From a virus (Duplodnaviria; Caudoviricetes), in the IMG/VR virus record IMGVR_UViG_3300020577_006613, positions 36,329-100,328 of that record: a stretch of 64,000 nt of DNA; one strand, 5' to 3'. Of this stretch, positions 4,173 to 36,792 are shown one piece after another. The position numbers were made by a program, and so were the translations under genes. The notes beneath the pieces were generated by a model. The model was given only the letters and a program-made list of their open reading frames with translations. It made no database searches and had not been told where the DNA came from. Every line of letters begins with the position of its first letter. Positions within the stretch are counted from its first letter, which is position 1.

Positions 4173-4664
4173 AATTTGCCCGCTTAGCTCAGTTGGATAG
4201 AGCAGATGATTTCTAATCATCAGGTCAGGGGTTCGAATCCCTTAGCGGGCGCTTTGGATAGAAAAAGGATTTCTAAGCGTTTCTTTGTATTCATCTCTAT
4301 GGAGGTGGATTATGAAGAAATGCACAAGGTGCCAGTTAGAAAAGAAAGATTCAGAGTTCTACGAAAAAAGACCAGACAGAAAACAATCGCTTTGTAAGCC
4401 TTGTTTCAATGACTATTGTGTTGAAAGATGGATTCAACGAAAAAAAGACGCTGTTGCATATAAGGGTGGAAAATGCAAAATTTGCGGCTACAACAAGAAC
4501 TACGCGGCTCTTGAATTTCATCATCGAGATTCATCTACGAAAGATTTCGAATGGGTAAAACTTAGGCTCTACAAATGGGATAGAGTTCTTGAAGAACTGG
4601 ATAAATGCGATTTGCTTTGCAGTAACTGCCATGTTGAATTTCATCATCCACAACAGTCTATAAG
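4173..4664 (+). mobile_element. HNH homing cassette carrying a replacement tRNA-Arg, inserted in a tRNA-Arg gene
   Basis: Flanked by complementary halves of a different tRNA; contains intact tRNA plus HNH gene. Confidence 0.75.
4178..4251 (+). tRNA. tRNA-Arg(UCU)
   Basis: GCCCGCT/AGCGGGC acceptor, GATGA-TTTCTAA-TCATC anticodon arm, GGTTCGAATCC. Confidence 0.95.
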
Positions 4665-4668
4665 CTAA
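4312..4668 (+). CDS. HNH homing endonuclease with N-terminal Zn finger
   Basis: CTRC/CKPC finger, GGKCKICGY..ALEFHHRD..KCDLLCSNCH; GGAGGT RBS. Confidence 0.9.
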   Translation: MKKCTRCQLEKKDSEFYEKRPDRKQSLCKPCFNDYCVERWIQRKKDAVAYKGGKCKICGYNKNYAALEFHHRDSSTKDFEWVKLRLYKWDRVLEELDKCDLLCSNCHVEFHHPQQSIS

Positions 4669-27753: not shown

Positions 27754-29691
27754 ATGTCGAACAATGTATCAGGGTACAGTGGAGACAAAATCCAGGTACT
27801 CAAGGGTCTCGAAGCAGTTAGGCATCGGCCCGCAATGTATATTGGTGATACCGAGAAAAAAGGTCTTCACCATCTTGCCTCAGAGATTCTCGATAACTCT
27901 GTTGACGAGGCAATGGCTGGTCATGCCAAGAATATCTCAATCATTCTCTTTGCTGATGGAGAAACAATCTCCATTGAAGATGATGGTCGTGGTATTCCTG
28001 TCGATATGCACCCAACAGAGGGCAAATCGGCACTTGAAGTTGCAATGACAATGCTCCATGCTGGCGGAAAGATGACTTCCGATTCCAGCGGCTATGTCGC
28101 ATCTGGTGGATTGCACGGCGTTGGCGCTTCTTGCGTAAACGCCTTGTCTGATTCCATGATCGTTGAGGTTCACCGAGAAGGATACCTCTGGCGTCAGGAA
28201 TACTCCAAGGGCGAGCCTTTGACCAAAGTTCAAAAGGTTCGTAAGCTCGAAAAGGGCGAAAAGCCTACAGGCACGAAAACGACTTGGCATGCAGATATCT
28301 TGATCTTCAAGGCGGGCGTAAAGCTCGATGAGCATGAGATTACCCGCAGACTCAGAGAAGTTGCCTTCCTCAACAAAGGACTGCGCATTACCTTTGAGAA
28401 TCAGGCAACAGGCTCAAAGCAAGATTTCAAGTTTGACGGCGGCATCGGCGATTACGTTCTTTATCTGATTCAGAACAAGAATGGTATTTATCCTGATGCT
28501 CCCATCTACGGCCTCAAGACCGCCGAAAAGATGCAGATTGAAATTGCTCTTTCATGGACGGACGATGACGATGGCCTCCTGTTCTCTTACGCAAACAACA
28601 TCTACACCTTCGATGGCGGCACGCATCTTTCAGGATTCAAGACTTCGCTTACCAGAACGGTAAACAAGCTTGCGTTTGCAGCAGGACTTATCAAGGAAAA
28701 TGGAGAATCCCTCGAAGGTAAGGATATCCAGGAAGGCCTTACTGCTGTCGTAAGCATTCGTTTGTCGCAGCCTCAATTCGGAGGCGGTAACACCAAGGCA
28801 AAGCTGGTAACCCCAGAAGCAGAAGCTCTTGTAAGCGGCGTAACTTCCGATGTTTTGACCGACTTCTTTGAACGCAACCCCAAGGCCCTTGCTAAGGTTG
28901 TGGAAAGAGCCGTTCTTGCTCAGCGCGCCAGAAAGGCAGCTAAGGATGCTGCCAGCACCTTGAAGAAGAAGAGTTTCTTGGGCAATAGCGGTCGAATCCC
29001 CAGTAAGCTCAGGGATTGCCGTAGCGGAGACAACTCTATAACCGAGTTGTTTATCGTCGAAGGTGATTCCGCTGCCGGCTCTGCAAGCGGCGGAAGAGAC
29101 AGCGAAACTCAGGCAATCTTGTCTAACAAGGGTAAGATTATCAACGCCGAGAAAAGCGATTTCGCAGACCTCATGAAGAATGAAGAAGTCATCAACCTGA
29201 TGATTTCGATTGGCACAGGAGTCAAGGATAACTTTGACCTGTCTAAGCTCAAGTACGGCAAGATCATCATCATGTCGGACGCCGACGATGATGGATACCA
29301 CATTCGTACTCTACTGCTTACGTTCTTCTACCGTTTCATGCGACCTCTTATTGAGCATGGTCATGTTTACATTGCTCAAGCCCCTCTTTACATGATTGAA
29401 AGAAAGAGCGATCCTATCTACTGCTGGAATGATCAGGATCTCAAGGACCAGTTGGCTAAACTTGGTTCCAAGTTTGATGTCAAGCGGTTCAAGGGTCTGG
29501 GCGAAATGGATGCTGAACAGCTTGCAGAAACAACCATGCGCAAGGGAAAGCGTCACCTTCTTCAGGTAAGCATGGAAGACGCCGCCGAAGCTGAACGTAT
29601 CCTGACTGTGTTGATGGGAAAGAACGTCCCTCTTCGTCGTCAGCATATCATGGAAAACGTCAATAACTGTCTTGTTTCCGTTGGAGATTGA
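27754..29691 (+). CDS. gyrB: DNA gyrase subunit B
   Basis: LEAVRHRPAMYIG, EILDNSVDE, GGLHGVG, EGDSA, DADDDG, RFKGLGEM. Confidence 0.95.
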   Translation: MSNNVSGYSGDKIQVLKGLEAVRHRPAMYIGDTEKKGLHHLASEILDNSVDEAMAGHAKNISIILFADGETISIEDDGRGIPVDMHPTEGKSALEVAMTMLHAGGKMTSDSSGYVASGGLHGVGASCVNALSDSMIVEVHREGYLWRQEYSKGEPLTKVQKVRKLEKGEKPTGTKTTWHADILIFKAGVKLDEHEITRRLREVAFLNKGLRITFENQATGSKQDFKFDGGIGDYVLYLIQNKNGIYPDAPIYGLKTAEKMQIEIALSWTDDDDGLLFSYANNIYTFDGGTHLSGFKTSLTRTVNKLAFAAGLIKENGESLEGKDIQEGLTAVVSIRLSQPQFGGGNTKAKLVTPEAEALVSGVTSDVLTDFFERNPKALAKVVERAVLAQRARKAAKDAASTLKKKSFLGNSGRIPSKLRDCRSGDNSITELFIVEGDSAAGSASGGRDSETQAILSNKGKIINAEKSDFADLMKNEEVINLMISIGTGVKDNFDLSKLKYGKIIIMSDADDDGYHIRTLLLTFFYRFMRPLIEHGHVYIAQAPLYMIERKSDPIYCWNDQDLKDQLAKLGSKFDVKRFKGLGEMDAEQLAETTMRKGKRHLLQVSMEDAAEAERILTVLMGKNVPLRRQHIMENVNNCLVSVGD

Positions 29692-29699
29692 GAACCTAT

Positions 29700-32270
29700 A
29701 TGTCTAAGAAAAAGAATCAGGTCGTTGTTGATGTTCCTGACAAGGTTACTGCTGAAGAATTCAGCAGCGTAATGAATGCGGCTTACATTCGATATGCCTA
29801 TAAGGTAATCGAAGACCGAGCCATTCCTGACGCAAGAGATGGAATGAAGCCGTCTCAGCGCCGCATCTTGTACGCTATGGACCAGCTTGGTCTTCAGCCG
29901 AACAAGAAGCATATGAAGTGCGCCAAGATTTGCGGCAACACTTCGGGCGATTATCACCCTCACGGTGAAGCCGTTGTTTACCCGACTCTTGTGAAGATGG
30001 CTCAGAGTTGGGGTATGCGTACTCCTCTTGTTGACCCTCAAGGTAACTTCGGCAGCATTGACGGCGACCCGCCCGCTGCTATGCGATATACAGAAGCCAA
30101 GCTTTCCGCTGCTGGCGCTGTTCTTATGGAAGACCTTTCTCCAAGGGTTGTTCCATACAAGCGCAACTACGACGACTCCAAGGAAGAGCCTACTGTCCTT
30201 CCTGCCAAGCTGCCTAATCTTTTGCTGAACGGCGGCTCTGGTATCGCAGTCGGTTACGCGACCAACATTCCTCCGCACAACTTGCGAGAACTCGCAAACG
30301 TGTTTGAGGCGTTCGTCAAGAATCCCAATATCACCGCAGCCGAAATCATTCGTATCATGCCTGGCCCTGACTTCCCCACGGGAGGAAGACTTATGGGACA
30401 GGAAGGCGTTCTGGACTATTACCAGAATGGTCGAGGCAGCATCAAGGTTGAAGGCGTTTACTCGATTGAAGTTGACGCAAAGGGCAACGAAAGCATCGTT
30501 GTTACAGAATTCCCCGAAGGCGGTTCGCCTGAAAAGTTCAGAGAAGAAGTCAAAGACCTTATTGAAAGAGAGAAGATTGGCGGAGTTTCTGACCTCGCCA
30601 ACTACTCTTCTAACAAGGATGGAACCAGGGTTGTTGTTGAAGTTGGCCGTAACGGAAACGCCAAAGTAATTCTCAACCATCTCCTGTCTCACACTTGTTT
30701 GCGGGTTAGCTTCTCTATCAATGCAACCGTACTGATTGACGGCAAGCTGTATGCTCATGCCCCAATCACGATGCTGATTAAGGCCTTCATTGACCACCGG
30801 CAGGAAGTGATCAACAAGAAGTTCAACGCTGAACTTGCTGACGCTAAGGACCGCATTGAAGTTCTGGAAGGCCTTATCAATGTTGCTTCCAAGATTGACG
30901 AAGCAATCAAGCTGATTCGCTCCGCAGAGAACGCCGAAGATGCGGCTAGACTTCTGATGGAAAAGAAGCTCGTCACAACCGAGCGTCAGGCAAAGGCTGT
31001 TCTTGCGATTACTCTTGCAAAGCTCACGAAGCTTGAACACAATTCGCTTGTTGACGAAAAGAACAAGAAGGTTGAACGGGTTGCTTGGCTCAACAAGACG
31101 CTTGCTAGCCAGACCGACATTCTTCAGATCGTTGTCAATGAACAGAAGGAACTGGCAGCAAAGATTGGAGATGACCGCAGAACTAAGGTTGAGGCAGCGG
31201 CTGGTAACATCGCCGTTGCTGACCTTATCGACGTTGAAGATGTTGTTGTCTGCATCACTACTGACGATTGCATCAAGCGCGTTCCGTTGAGCGAATACAA
31301 GAAGCAGAATCTTGGAGGCCACGGCGTCTCTTCCGCAAATGGTAAGGAAGATGTTTTGATGCAGCATATGTTCTCTGCGTCAACTCATGACGACCTTCTC
31401 TGCTTTACTGATACCGGCAGAGTCTTCTCTATCAAGGTCTTTGAACTGCCGGAAGCAACAAGAACCGCCAGAGGTCGCCCGATTATCAACTTCATCAACC
31501 TGAAGGATGGCGAAAAGGTTTGCGCTTACTTGCCCATCAAGGGACTTGGCAAGCAGCAGATTTTCCTCAACTTCATCTCTCGTAACGGCATTATCAAGCG
31601 CGCCGCTCTTCGCCAGTATGCAAAGATCAACCAGTCCGGTATCATTGCAACTAAGGTCAAGGATGGTGACAAGATTGTTGCCGTTCTTGTTTCGAAGGGC
31701 ATTGATGATATCCTGCTTGTCACCCATCTCGGAAACGCAATCCGCTTCAGTGAACTTGAAATCCGTATCTCTGGCCGCAACTCTCAGGGAGTAACGGGCA
31801 TCAAGATTACTGACGACGAAGACTACGTTGTTGGCGGTATTGCAATCCCCATGCGCTATGACAGCGACGGAGACACTATTACCGACGACAAGGAGCTTAC
31901 CATGATGACCCTTACCAATAAGGGCTGGGGTAAGCGTACTAATGTTGACGAATACCTTGTTGCTCCTGGCGACGGTTCCAAGCTGCGTCAGCAGATGCGC
32001 GGCGGCAAGGGTCGCATTGATATCAACCTTGAAGGCAAGGCTGGTAAGAGCGTTGGAGTTATCCCTCTCAAGAAGGGTAACGATATCGTTGTCATTACGA
32101 AGCAGGGGCAGATGGTTAGAGTCTCCGCTGATAATGTCAGAGTTATGAACAGAGGAACCAACGGTAGCAGGCTTATCAAGCTTGGAGATGGCGATGAAGT
32201 CCTTGCGGCATCTCCTGTTGCAAAGGAAGTTGAAGAAGCCATTACCGAAGAACTCGTTGCTGCTAACTAA
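29700..32270 (+). CDS. gyrA: DNA gyrase subunit A
   Basis: DGMKPSQRR, YHPHG, AAMRYTE, beta-pinwheel CTD with QNLGGHG and QMRGGKG boxes. Confidence 0.95.
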   Translation: MSKKKNQVVVDVPDKVTAEEFSSVMNAAYIRYAYKVIEDRAIPDARDGMKPSQRRILYAMDQLGLQPNKKHMKCAKICGNTSGDYHPHGEAVVYPTLVKMAQSWGMRTPLVDPQGNFGSIDGDPPAAMRYTEAKLSAAGAVLMEDLSPRVVPYKRNYDDSKEEPTVLPAKLPNLLLNGGSGIAVGYATNIPPHNLRELANVFEAFVKNPNITAAEIIRIMPGPDFPTGGRLMGQEGVLDYYQNGRGSIKVEGVYSIEVDAKGNESIVVTEFPEGGSPEKFREEVKDLIEREKIGGVSDLANYSSNKDGTRVVVEVGRNGNAKVILNHLLSHTCLRVSFSINATVLIDGKLYAHAPITMLIKAFIDHRQEVINKKFNAELADAKDRIEVLEGLINVASKIDEAIKLIRSAENAEDAARLLMEKKLVTTERQAKAVLAITLAKLTKLEHNSLVDEKNKKVERVAWLNKTLASQTDILQIVVNEQKELAAKIGDDRRTKVEAAAGNIAVADLIDVEDVVVCITTDDCIKRVPLSEYKKQNLGGHGVSSANGKEDVLMQHMFSASTHDDLLCFTDTGRVFSIKVFELPEATRTARGRPIINFINLKDGEKVCAYLPIKGLGKQQIFLNFISRNGIIKRAALRQYAKINQSGIIATKVKDGDKIVAVLVSKGIDDILLVTHLGNAIRFSELEIRISGRNSQGVTGIKITDDEDYVVGGIAIPMRYDSDGDTITDDKELTMMTLTNKGWGKRTNVDEYLVAPGDGSKLRQQMRGGKGRIDINLEGKAGKSVGVIPLKKGNDIVVITKQGQMVRVSADNVRVMNRGTNGSRLIKLGDGDEVLAASPVAKEVEEAITEELVAAN

Positions 32271-32282
32271 GGATATTCGTAG

Positions 32283-32528
32283 ATGCTTGGGTTCCGAAAA
32301 TTCTTTAGCAGAGCAATGGCAACTGTATCTAGCCTAAGAGTCTACATTCCCAAAAATCCACGATATAAGGTCAAAAGAGCATGGTGTTCCATAACAGACA
32401 CAGCTTCTGGCGATGAGTCTGACATAGAACTTGCGATTGAGATTGAAGAGAAAATGAGCAGAATAAAAATCTGTAGAATAACAACTAGCTCCAACCAGAT
32501 CGTTGTTAGCCTTAAGGTGGAAAAATGA
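32283..32528 (+). CDS. hypothetical protein
   Basis: Coupled to next gene. Confidence 0.55.
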   Translation: MLGFRKFFSRAMATVSSLRVYIPKNPRYKVKRAWCSITDTASGDESDIELAIEIEEKMSRIKICRITTSSNQIVVSLKVEK

Positions 32529-33460
32529 GCAACATCATCCTCATTGTTGGCTATCAAGCGTCTGGTAAATCAACGCTCTCTCAAACACTTATCAATCAAG
32601 GCTACATTCATATCAACAGAGACAAAGAGGGTGGTTCTATTGCCGGTCTTGTTCCTCTCGTTGAGGCTGCTATCAAAAGCGGCAAGAATGTAGTCCTTGA
32701 CAACACCTTCCCTACCAAAGCTGGCAGGAAGATGTTCATTGACCTTGCTCATAAGCACAAGGCAAGCATTACTTGCTATTGGCTCAATACGAGCATTGAA
32801 GATGCGCAGTTCAACGCTTGCTCTCGACTCGTAAAGATGTTTGGCTCATTGCCGAGCAATAACGATATCAAGAAGTCTAAACATCCCAATGTCTTTCCTG
32901 CTGCTGCGCTCTTTGGATACCGCAAAGAATTTGAGAAACCAACGACGCAGGAAGGTTTTGATAAGGTTGAGGTTATTGAATTCGCAAGAGTCATAGACCC
33001 GACCTATAACAAGAAGGCCTTGCTTCTTGACTTTGACGGTACTTTGAGAGACACGAAAAGCGGCGCAAAATTTCCAACAGACCCGAACGACATTTTCATC
33101 CTTCCTGGCAGAAAAGAACTTCTTCAAGCCAAGAAGAAAGAGGGTTACATACTGCTTGGAGTAAGCAATCAAAGCGGAGTAGAAAAGGGCGATCTTACAA
33201 TGGAGCAGGCAAAAGCTTGCTTTGATAAGACAATCGAACTTCTTGGAGTTGATATTGATGTTTCGTTCTGTCCTCACAGAGTACCGCCCATTAGTTGCTA
33301 TTGTCGCAAACCGATGCCCGGACTTCCGGTTCAATTCATTGAAAAATACAAACTTAATCCATCTCTTTGCATTCTTGTAGGGGATATGACTACAGATAAA
33401 ACTTGTGCAGCAAGAGCAGGAATGCAATTTGTTTCTGCTGATGAATTTTTCAAAGGATAA
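32525..33460 (+). CDS. polynucleotide 5'-kinase/3'-phosphatase (PNKP)
   Basis: GYQASGKST, INRD, LDNT; HAD DFDGTL, SNQSG, CRKP.PG, VGD..TD. Confidence 0.9.
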   Translation: MSNIILIVGYQASGKSTLSQTLINQGYIHINRDKEGGSIAGLVPLVEAAIKSGKNVVLDNTFPTKAGRKMFIDLAHKHKASITCYWLNTSIEDAQFNACSRLVKMFGSLPSNNDIKKSKHPNVFPAAALFGYRKEFEKPTTQEGFDKVEVIEFARVIDPTYNKKALLLDFDGTLRDTKSGAKFPTDPNDIFILPGRKELLQAKKKEGYILLGVSNQSGVEKGDLTMEQAKACFDKTIELLGVDIDVSFCPHRVPPISCYCRKPMPGLPVQFIEKYKLNPSLCILVGDMTTDKTCAARAGMQFVSADEFFKG

Positions 33461-33466
33461 TTAAAT

Positions 33467-33508
33467 CTTCTGTCGAAAACCTATATATCAATAGGCTTTT
33501 GACAGGAG
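33467..33508 (+). promoter_or_regulatory. RBS-sequestering hairpin of HNH gene
   Basis: CTTCTGTCGAAAACCTAT-ATATCA-ATAGGCTTTTGACAGGAG; 3' arm contains GGAG. Confidence 0.7.
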
Positions 33509-33514
33509 ATATCC

Positions 33515-34018
33515 ATGAAATGCAACAGATGCAAGGCAGAAAAACCAGAGTCCGAATTTGTTTCAGGTTCTAAAAGATGCTCTAAATGCCGAGTTTATCT
33601 TGCGAAATACTACAAGAAAAATAGAAGAGCGTCCATTGAAAGAGCAACTAAGAGCCAAAATAAAGATAGAGACAGGACCAACGCCTATAAACGCAGCCTC
33701 ATTCGAAAAAATCCTGTAAACTATATGTTTGGACAAGTTAAAAGTAGGGCCAAAAAGTTTGGAATAGAATTCGATATTGAAAAATCGGACATTCAAATTC
33801 CTGATATATGTCCTGTTCTTGGATTAAGACTAGAAATAGGAAATATCAAGTGTCATTCTAGTTCTCCAACTCTTGACCGTATTGATTCCTCAAAGGGCTA
33901 TGTAAAAGGCAATGTTCATGTTATATCGCATAAAGCCAACACAATTAAGAGCAATGCTTCTCTTGAAGATTTGCAAAAAGTTGTTGATTTCCTGCGAGCC
34001 ATGTCGTTGCGGCTTTAG
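33515..34018 (+). CDS. HNH homing endonuclease
   Basis: CNRC/CSKC finger; CPVLG...SPTLDRIDSSKGY.KGNV.VIS.KAN.IK; AT-rich. Confidence 0.9.
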   Translation: MKCNRCKAEKPESEFVSGSKRCSKCRVYLAKYYKKNRRASIERATKSQNKDRDRTNAYKRSLIRKNPVNYMFGQVKSRAKKFGIEFDIEKSDIQIPDICPVLGLRLEIGNIKCHSSSPTLDRIDSSKGYVKGNVHVISHKANTIKSNASLEDLQKVVDFLRAMSLRL

Positions 34019-34046
34019 GTTTGCTGATGCTGATGAGTTCTTTGGG
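34005..34046 (+). pseudogene. displaced original 3' end of PNKP
   Basis: Translates RCGFRFADADEFFG vs current C-terminus RAGMQFVSADEFFK. Confidence 0.75.
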
Positions 34047-34139
34047 GCTAGACTTTTGCCACAAAATAGTTGAATGCTTGCTTTGATTGCCTACTATTTG
34101 ACTGGATTGCTCAAGGACTCTTACAAAGGAAGCAAAAAA

Positions 34140-35450
34140 ATGACAGCAACCCTTACGGCGGAAAAGAAGACAACCAAGGCGCAACGTCTTGCAGAGTTTA
34201 GGGAACAATTTATTTGTCCCTTTAACGGCACTCTCAAGTCGCCTCTTGACATTAGTAGGTTCAGTGAAAAAGACGCAAGACCTACAAATGACGAAGTTAT
34301 CGCCAATTTGCCGACTCTTTCAGAATACCTGAAAGACCGTCGCTCTCCTGTTGCTTATGGGCTTTACGACGTTGTAAAGCTCGACGATTCTGAATACAAG
34401 AATGTGTTTATTCCAGGCGTCTGCTCAAATCACGCCGAGATCCTGTTCATCAATCCTGAAAACGGCTTTACATACAGAAGCGAAGAAAGCCTTCCTAATC
34501 TTACGCCTTCTTCTCATTTTCTCGCTTACCTCGAAACTGGTCAAAGAGAGTCGGAAGTTAACGATTATGGGCGATATGTCGAAGATGGTCCGGCCCTTGA
34601 CGGTGACTACCTTCCTGGAGCCTTGCTGATTGGCAATGAACTTTTGATTAACGCCGACGAGGATGTTGCTGATCTGGATTTTGTTGCAAGCGAAAACTAC
34701 AAGGAAAGACCTTGCGTAAGCTTCAATTGCCTTGTTAACCTTATCGAAGACAAGGTTATTACTTCTACCTCCGCAAGAGAAAAGGTTCTTGATAAAGCAG
34801 ATATTGAAATCCTTGCTTTCTCTGTTGCAGAAACCCGCAAGATTACCAAGACTCTTCAGGCATCGCTGACGGCTGCTCGTAAGTCTTCAAATTTCAGGTT
34901 CCTTGCTTGGGGAGCCAAGCAGACTCCTCCTGCTCCTGGCTTCTCTCTGGTCAATACTTCTCCTGCAACATGGCACAAGTCGGCAACCGTTTTGATTCGC
35001 AGCGGCAAGAGAACTTTCCTCATGGGGCAGGATGAGGGAACCTACTTCGGCTGTATCCTCGCTGACAATCCTTCTAGCATTGACGATGCTTATACTTCAC
35101 TGATGCCGGAAGAGGCTCGCGGAGTCAAGGGAGTTCTTCGACAGGGAGAGTGGTTCGCTATTCCTGTTCGCAATCAGAAGTCGGTTCCTAACCAGTTTTC
35201 TCCTGAAACGATTCTCTGGACCGACATCAACAATGACGATACCGCTCTTTGCTTTGGTATTGAGGATGATAGCTCCAATCATCACCATTTCAGAGGCGAG
35301 GTAATCATCACCAAGGATGGTCGCTATTTTGCTCGCGACTTCTCAATTGAACACGACGAGCATGCTTCTATGCGGGGAGAGAACGGTATCTGGTATACCT
35401 TCGCTCGTAATACGGCAAAGGCGTCGTACTCTGCTGAACGGGTTGACTAA
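34140..35450 (+). CDS. hypothetical phage protein (RQGEWF, His-rich C-terminus)
   Basis: Long ORF, AAGGA RBS, downstream of 11-mer. Confidence 0.8.
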   Translation: MTATLTAEKKTTKAQRLAEFREQFICPFNGTLKSPLDISRFSEKDARPTNDEVIANLPTLSEYLKDRRSPVAYGLYDVVKLDDSEYKNVFIPGVCSNHAEILFINPENGFTYRSEESLPNLTPSSHFLAYLETGQRESEVNDYGRYVEDGPALDGDYLPGALLIGNELLINADEDVADLDFVASENYKERPCVSFNCLVNLIEDKVITSTSAREKVLDKADIEILAFSVAETRKITKTLQASLTAARKSSNFRFLAWGAKQTPPAPGFSLVNTSPATWHKSATVLIRSGKRTFLMGQDEGTYFGCILADNPSSIDDAYTSLMPEEARGVKGVLRQGEWFAIPVRNQKSVPNQFSPETILWTDINNDDTALCFGIEDDSSNHHHFRGEVIITKDGRYFARDFSIEHDEHASMRGENGIWYTFARNTAKASYSAERVD

Positions 35451-35974: not shown

Positions 35975-36194
35975 AGAATCAAAGCACAAGCCATACTCAT
36001 GCCCCGAATGTACCGCTTCTTGTACTTTCGAGGCTATGGTTTTTTGTGTAAGAGACAACGATGAAGAGTGCCCCGTTATCTGCGATCTAAAGTCAGGCAA
36101 GATAACTGATAGAAGGCCTGATGATTTAGACCCCAATTTCCCTTCCATCTTCACCTACACAGAGATAACGAATGAAAGAATACCCGTCCATTGA
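35964..36194 (+). CDS. small Cys-rich protein
   Basis: CPEC..C, CPVIC. Confidence 0.55.
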   Translation: MTTKESKHKPYSCPECTASCTFEAMVFCVRDNDEECPVICDLKSGKITDRRPDDLDPNFPSIFTYTEITNERIPVH

Positions 36195-36792
36195 GGGTCC
36201 AAACGGCGACTTTGGAAAGCCATGTATTGCTTTCTATAAGTACGATGGTAGCAACTTGCGCTTTGAGTGGAGTCCTAAGAAGGGCTGGAACAAGTTTGGC
36301 ACCAGAACCAGACTCTTCGATAAGTCAGATCCGGTCTTCGGCTCTGCTGTTGACCTTTTCATGGCAACCCAAGCGGAAGGCATTGAACGAGTCATTCGAG
36401 ACACGAAAGAGTTTCGTAACAACGAGCGAGTAACCGCTTATTGCGAGTTTTTTGGTCCTAAATCGTTCGCTGGCATTCACGACCTAGAAATCCCCAACGA
36501 GCCAATGGAACTCGTTCTTTTTGACATAAACCTTCATAAGAAGGGTATTCTTGGCCCAAGGGAATTTGTCAATCACTTCGGTCATCTCAAAACCGCTCAG
36601 GTTATCTATGAGGGCAACTTCAATCAGACGCTAATCGACGCTGTTCGTAATAGAACTCTTCCTGTTTGGGAAGGCGTCATTGCCAAGGGCGGCAACGGGC
36701 ACGATCTCTGGATGCGCAAGATTAAGTCGAACGATTACCTTGAAAAGTTGCGAGCAGTCTTTAGGGATGGTTGGGAAAAGTACGCAGAGTAA
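36172..36792 (+). CDS. compact ATP-dependent RNA ligase (Rnl2-like adenylyltransferase domain)
   Basis: YPSI, motif I KYDGSN, CEFFG, LFDI, EGVIAK, RKIK. Confidence 0.8.
   Translation: MKEYPSIEGPNGDFGKPCIAFYKYDGSNLRFEWSPKKGWNKFGTRTRLFDKSDPVFGSAVDLFMATQAEGIERVIRDTKEFRNNERVTAYCEFFGPKSFAGIHDLEIPNEPMELVLFDINLHKKGILGPREFVNHFGHLKTAQVIYEGNFNQTLIDAVRNRTLPVWEGVIAKGGNGHDLWMRKIKSNDYLEKLRAVFRDGWEKYAE

Follow-up and report, generated by a model that had tools for sequence, protein, structure and literature searches.

The 64,000-nucleotide (nt) stretch of DNA analysed here (the window), bases 36329-100328 of the 100,328-bp IMG/VR virus record IMGVR_UViG_3300020577_006613, encodes the RNA-repair enzyme PNKP (32525-33460, plus strand; 311 amino acids [aa]), and we think it probable that the 3' end of this gene was invaded by a putative free-standing homing cassette. 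The cassette would comprise about 47 foreign codons that now form the end of PNKP, a hairpin, and a gene for a PacI-like HNH endonuclease, and part of the displaced native PNKP end is left behind it as a stub. The locus is best read as the outcome of homing in which the left junction was homologous and the right one illegitimate. An earlier sequence-only reading of this DNA gave correct coordinates and translations for PNKP, the nuclease open reading frame (ORF) and 34005-34046. Its central proposal, that an element sits in the PNKP 3' end with a replacement terminus and that the remnant is the original one, is borne out by the chimeric pattern of identity, the shift in base composition and the ends of 318-aa PNKP alleles from close relatives.

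Comparison with these alleles shows the window PNKP to be chimeric, its body native and its end foreign. Five intact 318-aa alleles (P0002, P0241, P0242, P0244 and P0246, from ENA contigs of 1.9-4.5 kb) fall within the 90%-identity cluster of the window PNKP and have an uninterrupted PNKP at this site. The body (residues 1-264; 32525..33316, plus strand) is assigned to the native lineage by its 95-98% identity to them, while the end (residues 265-311 and the TAA stop; 33317..33460, plus strand, with a left boundary uncertain within 33215-33338) is 57-64% identical (27-30 of 47 residues, so that 17-20 differ). P0242 shares 258/264 body residues and 30/47 end residues with the window (Fisher p 3.5e-11), the last body difference being at residue 230; P0241 shares 256/264 body residues. 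With the distant homologue P0003, from locus L003, the pattern is inverted, with 72% identity in the body and 83% (39/47) in the end, and the end is identical to that of a further relative, P0001, at all 47 residues. Protein comparison with relatives places the breakpoint at residues 231-265. Because the imported end is 83% like that of L003 and 57-64% like the native one, it is best described as a natural variant from another phage lineage and not as a synonymous recoding. The earlier suggestion that the element supplied a recoded version of the same peptide therefore fails. Among 120 PNKP homologues, 107 have an end of the TF..R type, as do the native alleles and the stub, and six share the TC..R type with the imported end. 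The window PNKP itself is complete to ...EFFKG, as in 311-aa homologues, and has its own stop codon.

The AT-richness of the PNKP end, which had been noticed from the sequence, is confirmed. The G+C fraction (GC) is 0.368 in the end and 0.443 in the body, and at third codon positions (GC3) it is 0.19 and 0.46 respectively; a GC3 change point lies after codon 271 (nt 33338), beyond which the value is 0.15 instead of 0.46 (permutation p = 0.0025). The block 33317-34016 as a whole has a GC of 0.367, below that of 99.9% of 700-nt windows. The phosphatase-domain sequence at the left junction has 92-98% protein identity even among distant relatives, and such strong conservation makes the site suitable for a homologous crossover.

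The stub occupies 34005..34073 (plus strand) and consists of 22 codons and a TGA stop (34071-34073), its frame being +1 with respect to the PNKP and nuclease ORFs alike. The segment 34005-34046 translates as RCGFRFADADEFFG and, as the sequence-only reading had it, matches the present PNKP end RAGMQFVSADEFFK at 8/14 residues; at the DNA level 24/48 nt are identical over the aligned stretch. This match is real but not significant alone in a tblastn search of the window PNKP against the whole window (E = 1.1), yet when the 60 C-terminal PNKP residues are aligned locally to the stub frame, the score beats 2000/2000 shuffles and all 48 control windows. A stronger match comes from the intact alleles, which terminate in ...ADRCGFKF[AV]DAD[VA]FF[GD]S[RA]L[SA][PS]QNS: when all six frames of the window are searched, the final 22 residues of P0002 and P0241 match 34005-34070 at 18/22 (E = 3.7e-7). 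Since intact alleles of close relatives match it to this extent, we regard the stub as the original PNKP end of this phage lineage, of which 22 of about 54 codons are kept. Its GC (0.46) is like that of the remainder of the genome, and at 82% identity (18/22) to P0002 and P0241, against 57% (27/47) for the inserted end, it is the native piece that is nearer to the close relatives. The 318-aa alleles thus end in the stub version, as the sequence-only reading would have it for relatives without the nuclease, but the relative P0001 ends in the MQFVSADEFFKG version. We considered whether the stub is in decay, and this cannot be deduced from its divergence, since the native ends of intact alleles differ from one another by as much (6/22 between P0241 and P0242).

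Within the stub, at 34046..34056 (plus strand) and upstream of the next gene, is a copy of an 11-mer, GGCTAGACTTT, which occurs in the window as 19 exact and two one-mismatch copies where 1.2 are expected, nearly all of them at gene boundaries. The motif evidently lay within the native 318-aa ORF, and the stub may persist as its carrier. Inspection by eye showed no clear -10 hexamer after the 11-mer at 34046. A spacer and then the next gene follow the stub TGA.

The right junction lies at 33998..34004 (plus strand): similarity to other nucleases stops at 33995-33997, and similarity to the native PNKP begins at 34005. Homologous nucleases terminate in ...VVDFLKRKTT (P0123) or ...VVLYLEKITQ (P0122), and the window nuclease reads ...VVDFLR followed by AMSLRL and a TAG stop. 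That stop (34016-34018) falls within the stub, so that, as previously proposed, it comes from remnant sequence; the nuclease has lost approximately its last four native codons, and its final codons and stop are stub DNA read in another frame. Because a truncated nuclease gene is fused into the middle of the native PNKP end, this junction is illegitimate and not a product of homologous recombination. The event was also not the clean insertion envisaged in the sequence-only reading, given the native codons missing from the stub and the nuclease codons lost here.

The nuclease gene (33515..34018, plus strand; 167 aa, with its last codons and stop contributed by the stub) is predicted to encode a PacI-like HNH (His-Me finger) enzyme. 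PHROGs searches give matches to phrog_3322 ('endonuclease', 1.4e-37), 'endonuclease VII' (4e-20) and phrog_3118 ('HNH endonuclease', 2.5e-11), and Pfam has no match even at E 10. PHROGs also ties the nuclease family to the 'Srd anti-sigma factor' (phrog_1400). PacI is the only PDB sequence match (phmmer), the aligned blocks being an N-terminal CxxC ribbon and a DRxD...GY...N...N...K core, and an AlphaFold2 model built from 40 homologues (pLDDT 94) has PacI (3ldy) as its top Foldseek match (E 4.8e-4, TM-score 0.37-0.42) with other HNH domains weakly behind. The protein bears the motif SPxLDRIDxxKGYxxGNxxVISxxANxxK together with an N-terminal CxxC...CxxC. Among the 40 homologues D121, G128, Y129, N133, N142 and K145 are invariant and R122, C3, C6, C22 and C25 reach at least 90% conservation; the window nuclease keeps every residue that is invariant in its family.

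The nuclease appears to be free-standing and not embedded in an intron or intein, because PNKP is complete, the nuclease is served by a Shine-Dalgarno sequence and a start codon that are its own and separate from the PNKP ORF, and a search of 33100-34300 against Rfam, including group I introns, gives no match at E up to 1. Between the two genes is a hairpin (33465..33510, plus strand) whose 3' arm holds the nuclease Shine-Dalgarno AGGAG (33504-33508). Its predicted stability is -23.9 kcal/mol (z = -7.0), which none of 200 shuffles equals, and similar hairpins with a Shine-Dalgarno in the 3' arm are present in the corresponding spacers of two related loci, L003 (-21.1 kcal/mol, z -6.0) and L074 (-24.4 kcal/mol, z -7.3). 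Alignment of the three hairpins contains 14 pairs, one of them compensatory, a covariation signal limited by the number of sequences.

The presence of the nuclease is sporadic among related PNKP loci. It was found at two of about 70 in a first survey (the window and L003), and a third pair is L074. In locus L003, part of a 123-kb contig from IMG/VR, a 54-nt spacer separates PNKP from a nuclease with 69% protein identity to that of the window, and an unrelated 119-aa gene lies 13 nt further on; there is no stub, and the layout is donor-like. Locus L074 (L074:2004-3582), from a phage contig of 340 kb, encodes a PNKP of 313 aa; its 58-nt spacer opens with the same TAATTAAA behind the PNKP stop, and its nuclease shares 50% identity with that of the window, again with no stub. 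A scan of IMG/VR with a conserved intergenic 18-mer matches only the contig of L003, and a metagenome scan with P0002 found a best relative at 64% and none closer. One 480-kb contig also holds both a PNKP and a nuclease homologue; a tblastn search with P0125 shows this contig to be absent from the phage collection.

There are signs of recent movement. P0001, on a 9551-bp Logan contig, is 74% identical to the window PNKP over residues 1-126 and then identical at 183/185 positions over residues 127-311, and the product of the gene after it (P0253) is 78% identical to the window's; the residue 127-311 block thus looks like a recent transfer within 75-78% identical flanks. This near-identical block in diverged flanks, together with the chimeric PNKP, suggests that flanking target-gene sequence was co-converted. 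An identical nuclease protein is recorded on six contigs, and the exact window PNKP on one. Alleles without the nuclease also carry two types of end on identical bodies (P0002 and P0244, with P0241 having the end of P0002), with a breakpoint at about residue 263. Exchange therefore seems to be frequent at this boundary, which coincides with the left edge of the cassette and suggests a recombination hot spot.

We propose that homing proceeded as follows. During a mixed infection the nuclease would have cut a nuclease-free PNKP allele at codons ~231-297, and the left DNA end would have invaded the conserved phosphatase-domain sequence of the donor, from which the PNKP end and the nuclease gene were copied. 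The new strand would then have been rejoined to the other broken end via microhomology or end joining (one-sided homing), and the RCGF codons, with which the stub begins, would represent the cut or a position just 3' of it. With the imported end PNKP would remain functional, and the divergence of that end from the native version would probably shield the genome from its own nuclease, the immunity put forward in the sequence-only reading. The proposal predicts cleavage of the 318-aa PNKP allele by the nuclease at a site in codons ~231-297, close to those for RCGF.

The same layout was sought at other loci of the nuclease family, of which IMG/VR contains at least 547; 80 were fetched, and the last 40 residues of the upstream gene were searched for just after the nuclease, with the rest of each locus as a control. 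A duplicated gene end follows the nuclease at four of the 80 (L098, L123, L118 and L149), and a fifth (L101) is the mirror image; for the clear cases 0-2 of 2000 shuffles attain the observed score. Locus L098 (L098:2-1087) exemplifies the layout more clearly than the window does, with a clamp-loader A subunit gene (PF16790), the nuclease (~402-899) and a 57-aa duplicate (score 183, 0/2000 shuffles) that begins directly after the nuclease stop. In L123 (L123:1277-3691) a T7-type primase-helicase gene and the nuclease are followed by a 23-aa copy of the helicase end (GPAxSLxYDxxTGRM..., score 70) in an ORF overlapping the nuclease end. Loci L118 (L118:1654-3398) and L149 (L149:951-2559) have cyanophage psbA (PF00124), the nuclease and a second psbA end, EEVLPRGNAL; in L149 the nuclease ORF continues in frame into the psbA stub and takes its stop codon. 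The gene directly upstream of the nuclease is psbA at 10 of the 80 loci. In L101 (L101:2759-4135) a 47-aa 5' stub of ThyX (83% identity, E 4e-27) precedes the nuclease and full ThyX comes right after it. Borderline stubs in L143 (DNA polymerase A), L086, L120 and L114 score barely above controls and are not claimed. With the psbA-linked nuclease (L118:2773-3252) as the query, tblastn matches occur in ~355 Escherichia T4-like phage records, and T4 may hold a relative of the nuclease fold. As relatives of the nuclease are found at psbA, primase-helicase, clamp-loader and ThyX genes, the theme of tRNA and RNA-repair targets perceived in the sequence-only reading is probably a coincidence.

Several considerations weigh against homing as we have described it. 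The junctions are placed at protein resolution for the 318-aa alleles and the P0001 contig; the link between the stub and the 11-mer is a correlation; and L003 is rejected as the direct donor, with ~80% DNA identity over the cassette and 69% protein identity between the nucleases. The activity, specificity and cut site of the nuclease are predictions, and its family has an arginine (DRID) in place of the usual catalytic histidine, as PacI appears to. This leaves room for ordinary mosaic recombination to have swapped the PNKP end, with the nuclease hitch-hiking and either inactive or serving another role. Ends are indeed shuffled among nuclease-free alleles, as in P0002 and P0244, and P0001 has the new end on a contig where a nuclease is unproven; were that contig to lack one, ordinary recombination could supply the end. 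We nevertheless consider mosaic exchange unlikely, because a truncating right junction inside the native end is an illegitimate join of the kind expected from break repair and not from homologous exchange, duplicated gene ends flank the same nuclease family at five other genes, and the conserved nuclease residues are all retained.

The loss of native codons 265-296 also bears on the order of events, in that it is equally explicable by a later deletion: the element could have inserted cleanly with its foreign end, and codons 265-296 and the last nuclease codons could have been deleted afterwards. Fuller stubs do occur in the family, L098 retaining its long duplicate right after the nuclease stop, but this scheme requires two events where one is enough, and no repeat is visible that could mediate the deletion, the new end and the stub having only the 24/48 DNA identity given above; it seems to us quite improbable. 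That the resemblance arose by chance, or that the stub is still expressed, by way of an intron or intein, as the genuine PNKP terminus, is hardly credible. Although the present PNKP end resembles the stub no better than E ~1, the intact alleles match it at E 3.7e-7, PNKP is complete through ...EFFKG with the stub in another frame, and the Rfam search gave no match.

If homing is the correct explanation, the locus is a fairly clean natural record of a selfish nuclease entering a gene without killing it: the native body, imported end, nuclease and leftover end can all be identified, and the intact alleles of close relatives allow comparison. The layout is well known in fungal mitochondria, and here five other genes, cyanophage psbA among them, show it again around one phage nuclease family. 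It would explain the short overlapping ORFs and pseudo-ends found beside HNH genes in annotation, and warns that gene ends beside such nucleases may differ in history from the gene body. A broader possibility, which we raise tentatively, is that phage PacI-like HNH nucleases are widespread gene-end-replacing cassettes, each carrying a substitute 3' (or 5') end for the conserved gene that it cuts, spreading through one-sided homing and leaving a native stub whose start marks where cleavage occurs. Metagenomes by themselves would then suffice to reveal target sites, short orphan ORFs and mosaic gene ends beside phage nuclease genes would in many cases be accounted for, and selfish nucleases would drive domain-level exchange in PNKP, psbA, primase-helicase, clamp loader and ThyX.

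The source of the window is a fragment of a huge phage, the record being ~20% complete by estimate and its closest named relatives being 'uncultured phage' genomes of 460-600 kb. A blastn search of the PNKP-nuclease locus against 50,697 phage records gave no matches. Upstream of PNKP are gyrase A (29688-32270; PF00521/PF03989) and, between the two, a small ORF. PNKP has Pfam matches to AAA_33 (1.6e-12, residues 5-92) and to PNK3P/HAD (PNK3P 3e-11, residues 167-309), consistent with the T4-type layout of an N-terminal P-loop kinase and a C-terminal HAD-type 3'-phosphatase, and together with an RNA ligase (36172-36792; PF09414) it forms a T4-like RNA-repair pair. The next gene 3' of the stub (34140..35450, plus strand) is not assigned a function and has no Pfam or PHROG match; its orthologues are 89% (ENA) and 78% (contigs of P0001 and of P0123) identical. 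The 458-aa ORF call for this gene, with a start in the 34074-34139 region, is probably too long at its 5' side; the start at 34140 is likelier because the cluster representative P0248 is the 436-aa form, and an AGGAAG-like ribosome-binding site precedes it. Elsewhere in the window there are tRNA-Arg(TCT) genes at 740-814 and 4178-4252 and a 127-aa canonical HNH ORF at 4285-4668, which has only the N-terminal CxxC ribbon in common with the PNKP-linked nuclease and belongs to a different family.

The class of 'PacI-like HNH endonucleases' has been named before, in lactococcal Skunavirus phages (PMC12724721). The window nuclease is like PacI (PDB 3ldy/3m7k) in its N-terminal CxxC zinc ribbon and DRxD...GY...N...N...K core, but PacI is a restriction enzyme whose 8-bp site is fixed and whose context depends on a methylase, and the second zinc site, CxxC in PacI, reads SHKAN in the window nuclease. 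A second point of comparison is F-CphI of cyanophage S-PM2, a member of the DHHRN / Endo VII-motif family according to PMC6083498, which cites Zeng et al. 2009. On that account F-CphI is likewise encoded by a free-standing gene adjoining psbA, which it cuts, although its genome is protected by an intron in psbA and not by a replaced gene end. The D-H-H-R-N residues are conserved there, whereas the motif region of our 40-homologue alignment has no conserved histidine, so that by the family definition in that source the window nuclease falls outside the DHHRN/F-CphI group.

In being intergenic and sporadic, and in the apparent co-conversion of flanking conserved-gene sequence, the cassette resembles the free-standing homing endonucleases and intronless homing of T4-type phages, as represented by SegF, SegG, SegB and MobE (PMC2988022, PMC2790892, PMC2330249). 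The hairpin that would bury the nuclease ribosome-binding site is similar to those that regulate I-TevI/II/III, segB and Aeh1 mobE in T4-type phages (PMC2988022), and one-sided homing with illegitimate repair at microhomology has been demonstrated for the T4 td intron where exon homology is limited (Parker et al. 1999, as summarized in PMC2988022). The enzyme differs in belonging to a PacI-like DRxD...N...N family and not to the GIY-YIG or HNH_3-type Mob families. We found no description of a leftover native gene end for SegF, SegG, SegB or MobE, and neither full-text searches nor PMC10448857 gave a description of the layout for phage free-standing nucleases, a result of limited coverage that is not proof of novelty.

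The closest parallel is with the mORFs of fungal mitochondria, which form gene hybrids with a C-terminal duplication (PMC3630166, which cites Paquin et al. 1994); the cases are Allomyces macrogynus atp6, Glomus atp6/atp9/cox2/nad3, Rhizopus atp9 and Mortierella cox2. The PNKP locus shares with these hybrids the order of core, in-phase foreign C-terminus, endonuclease ORF and downstream native C-terminus, the closer relationship of the native piece than of the inserted piece to close relatives (82% and 57% here) and, as in some mORF cases, the partial retention of the native end. It differs in that mORFs are LAGLIDADG or GIY-YIG elements of mitochondrial genomes, the present gene being of the PacI-like HNH type and carried by a huge phage, in that the phage nuclease ORF is separate from its host gene with its own ribosome-binding site and hairpin, and in that the nuclease 3' end is clipped and its stop codon borrowed from the stub. 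By analogy, the PNKP cassette would work like a mORF, yet it stands outside the mORF group.

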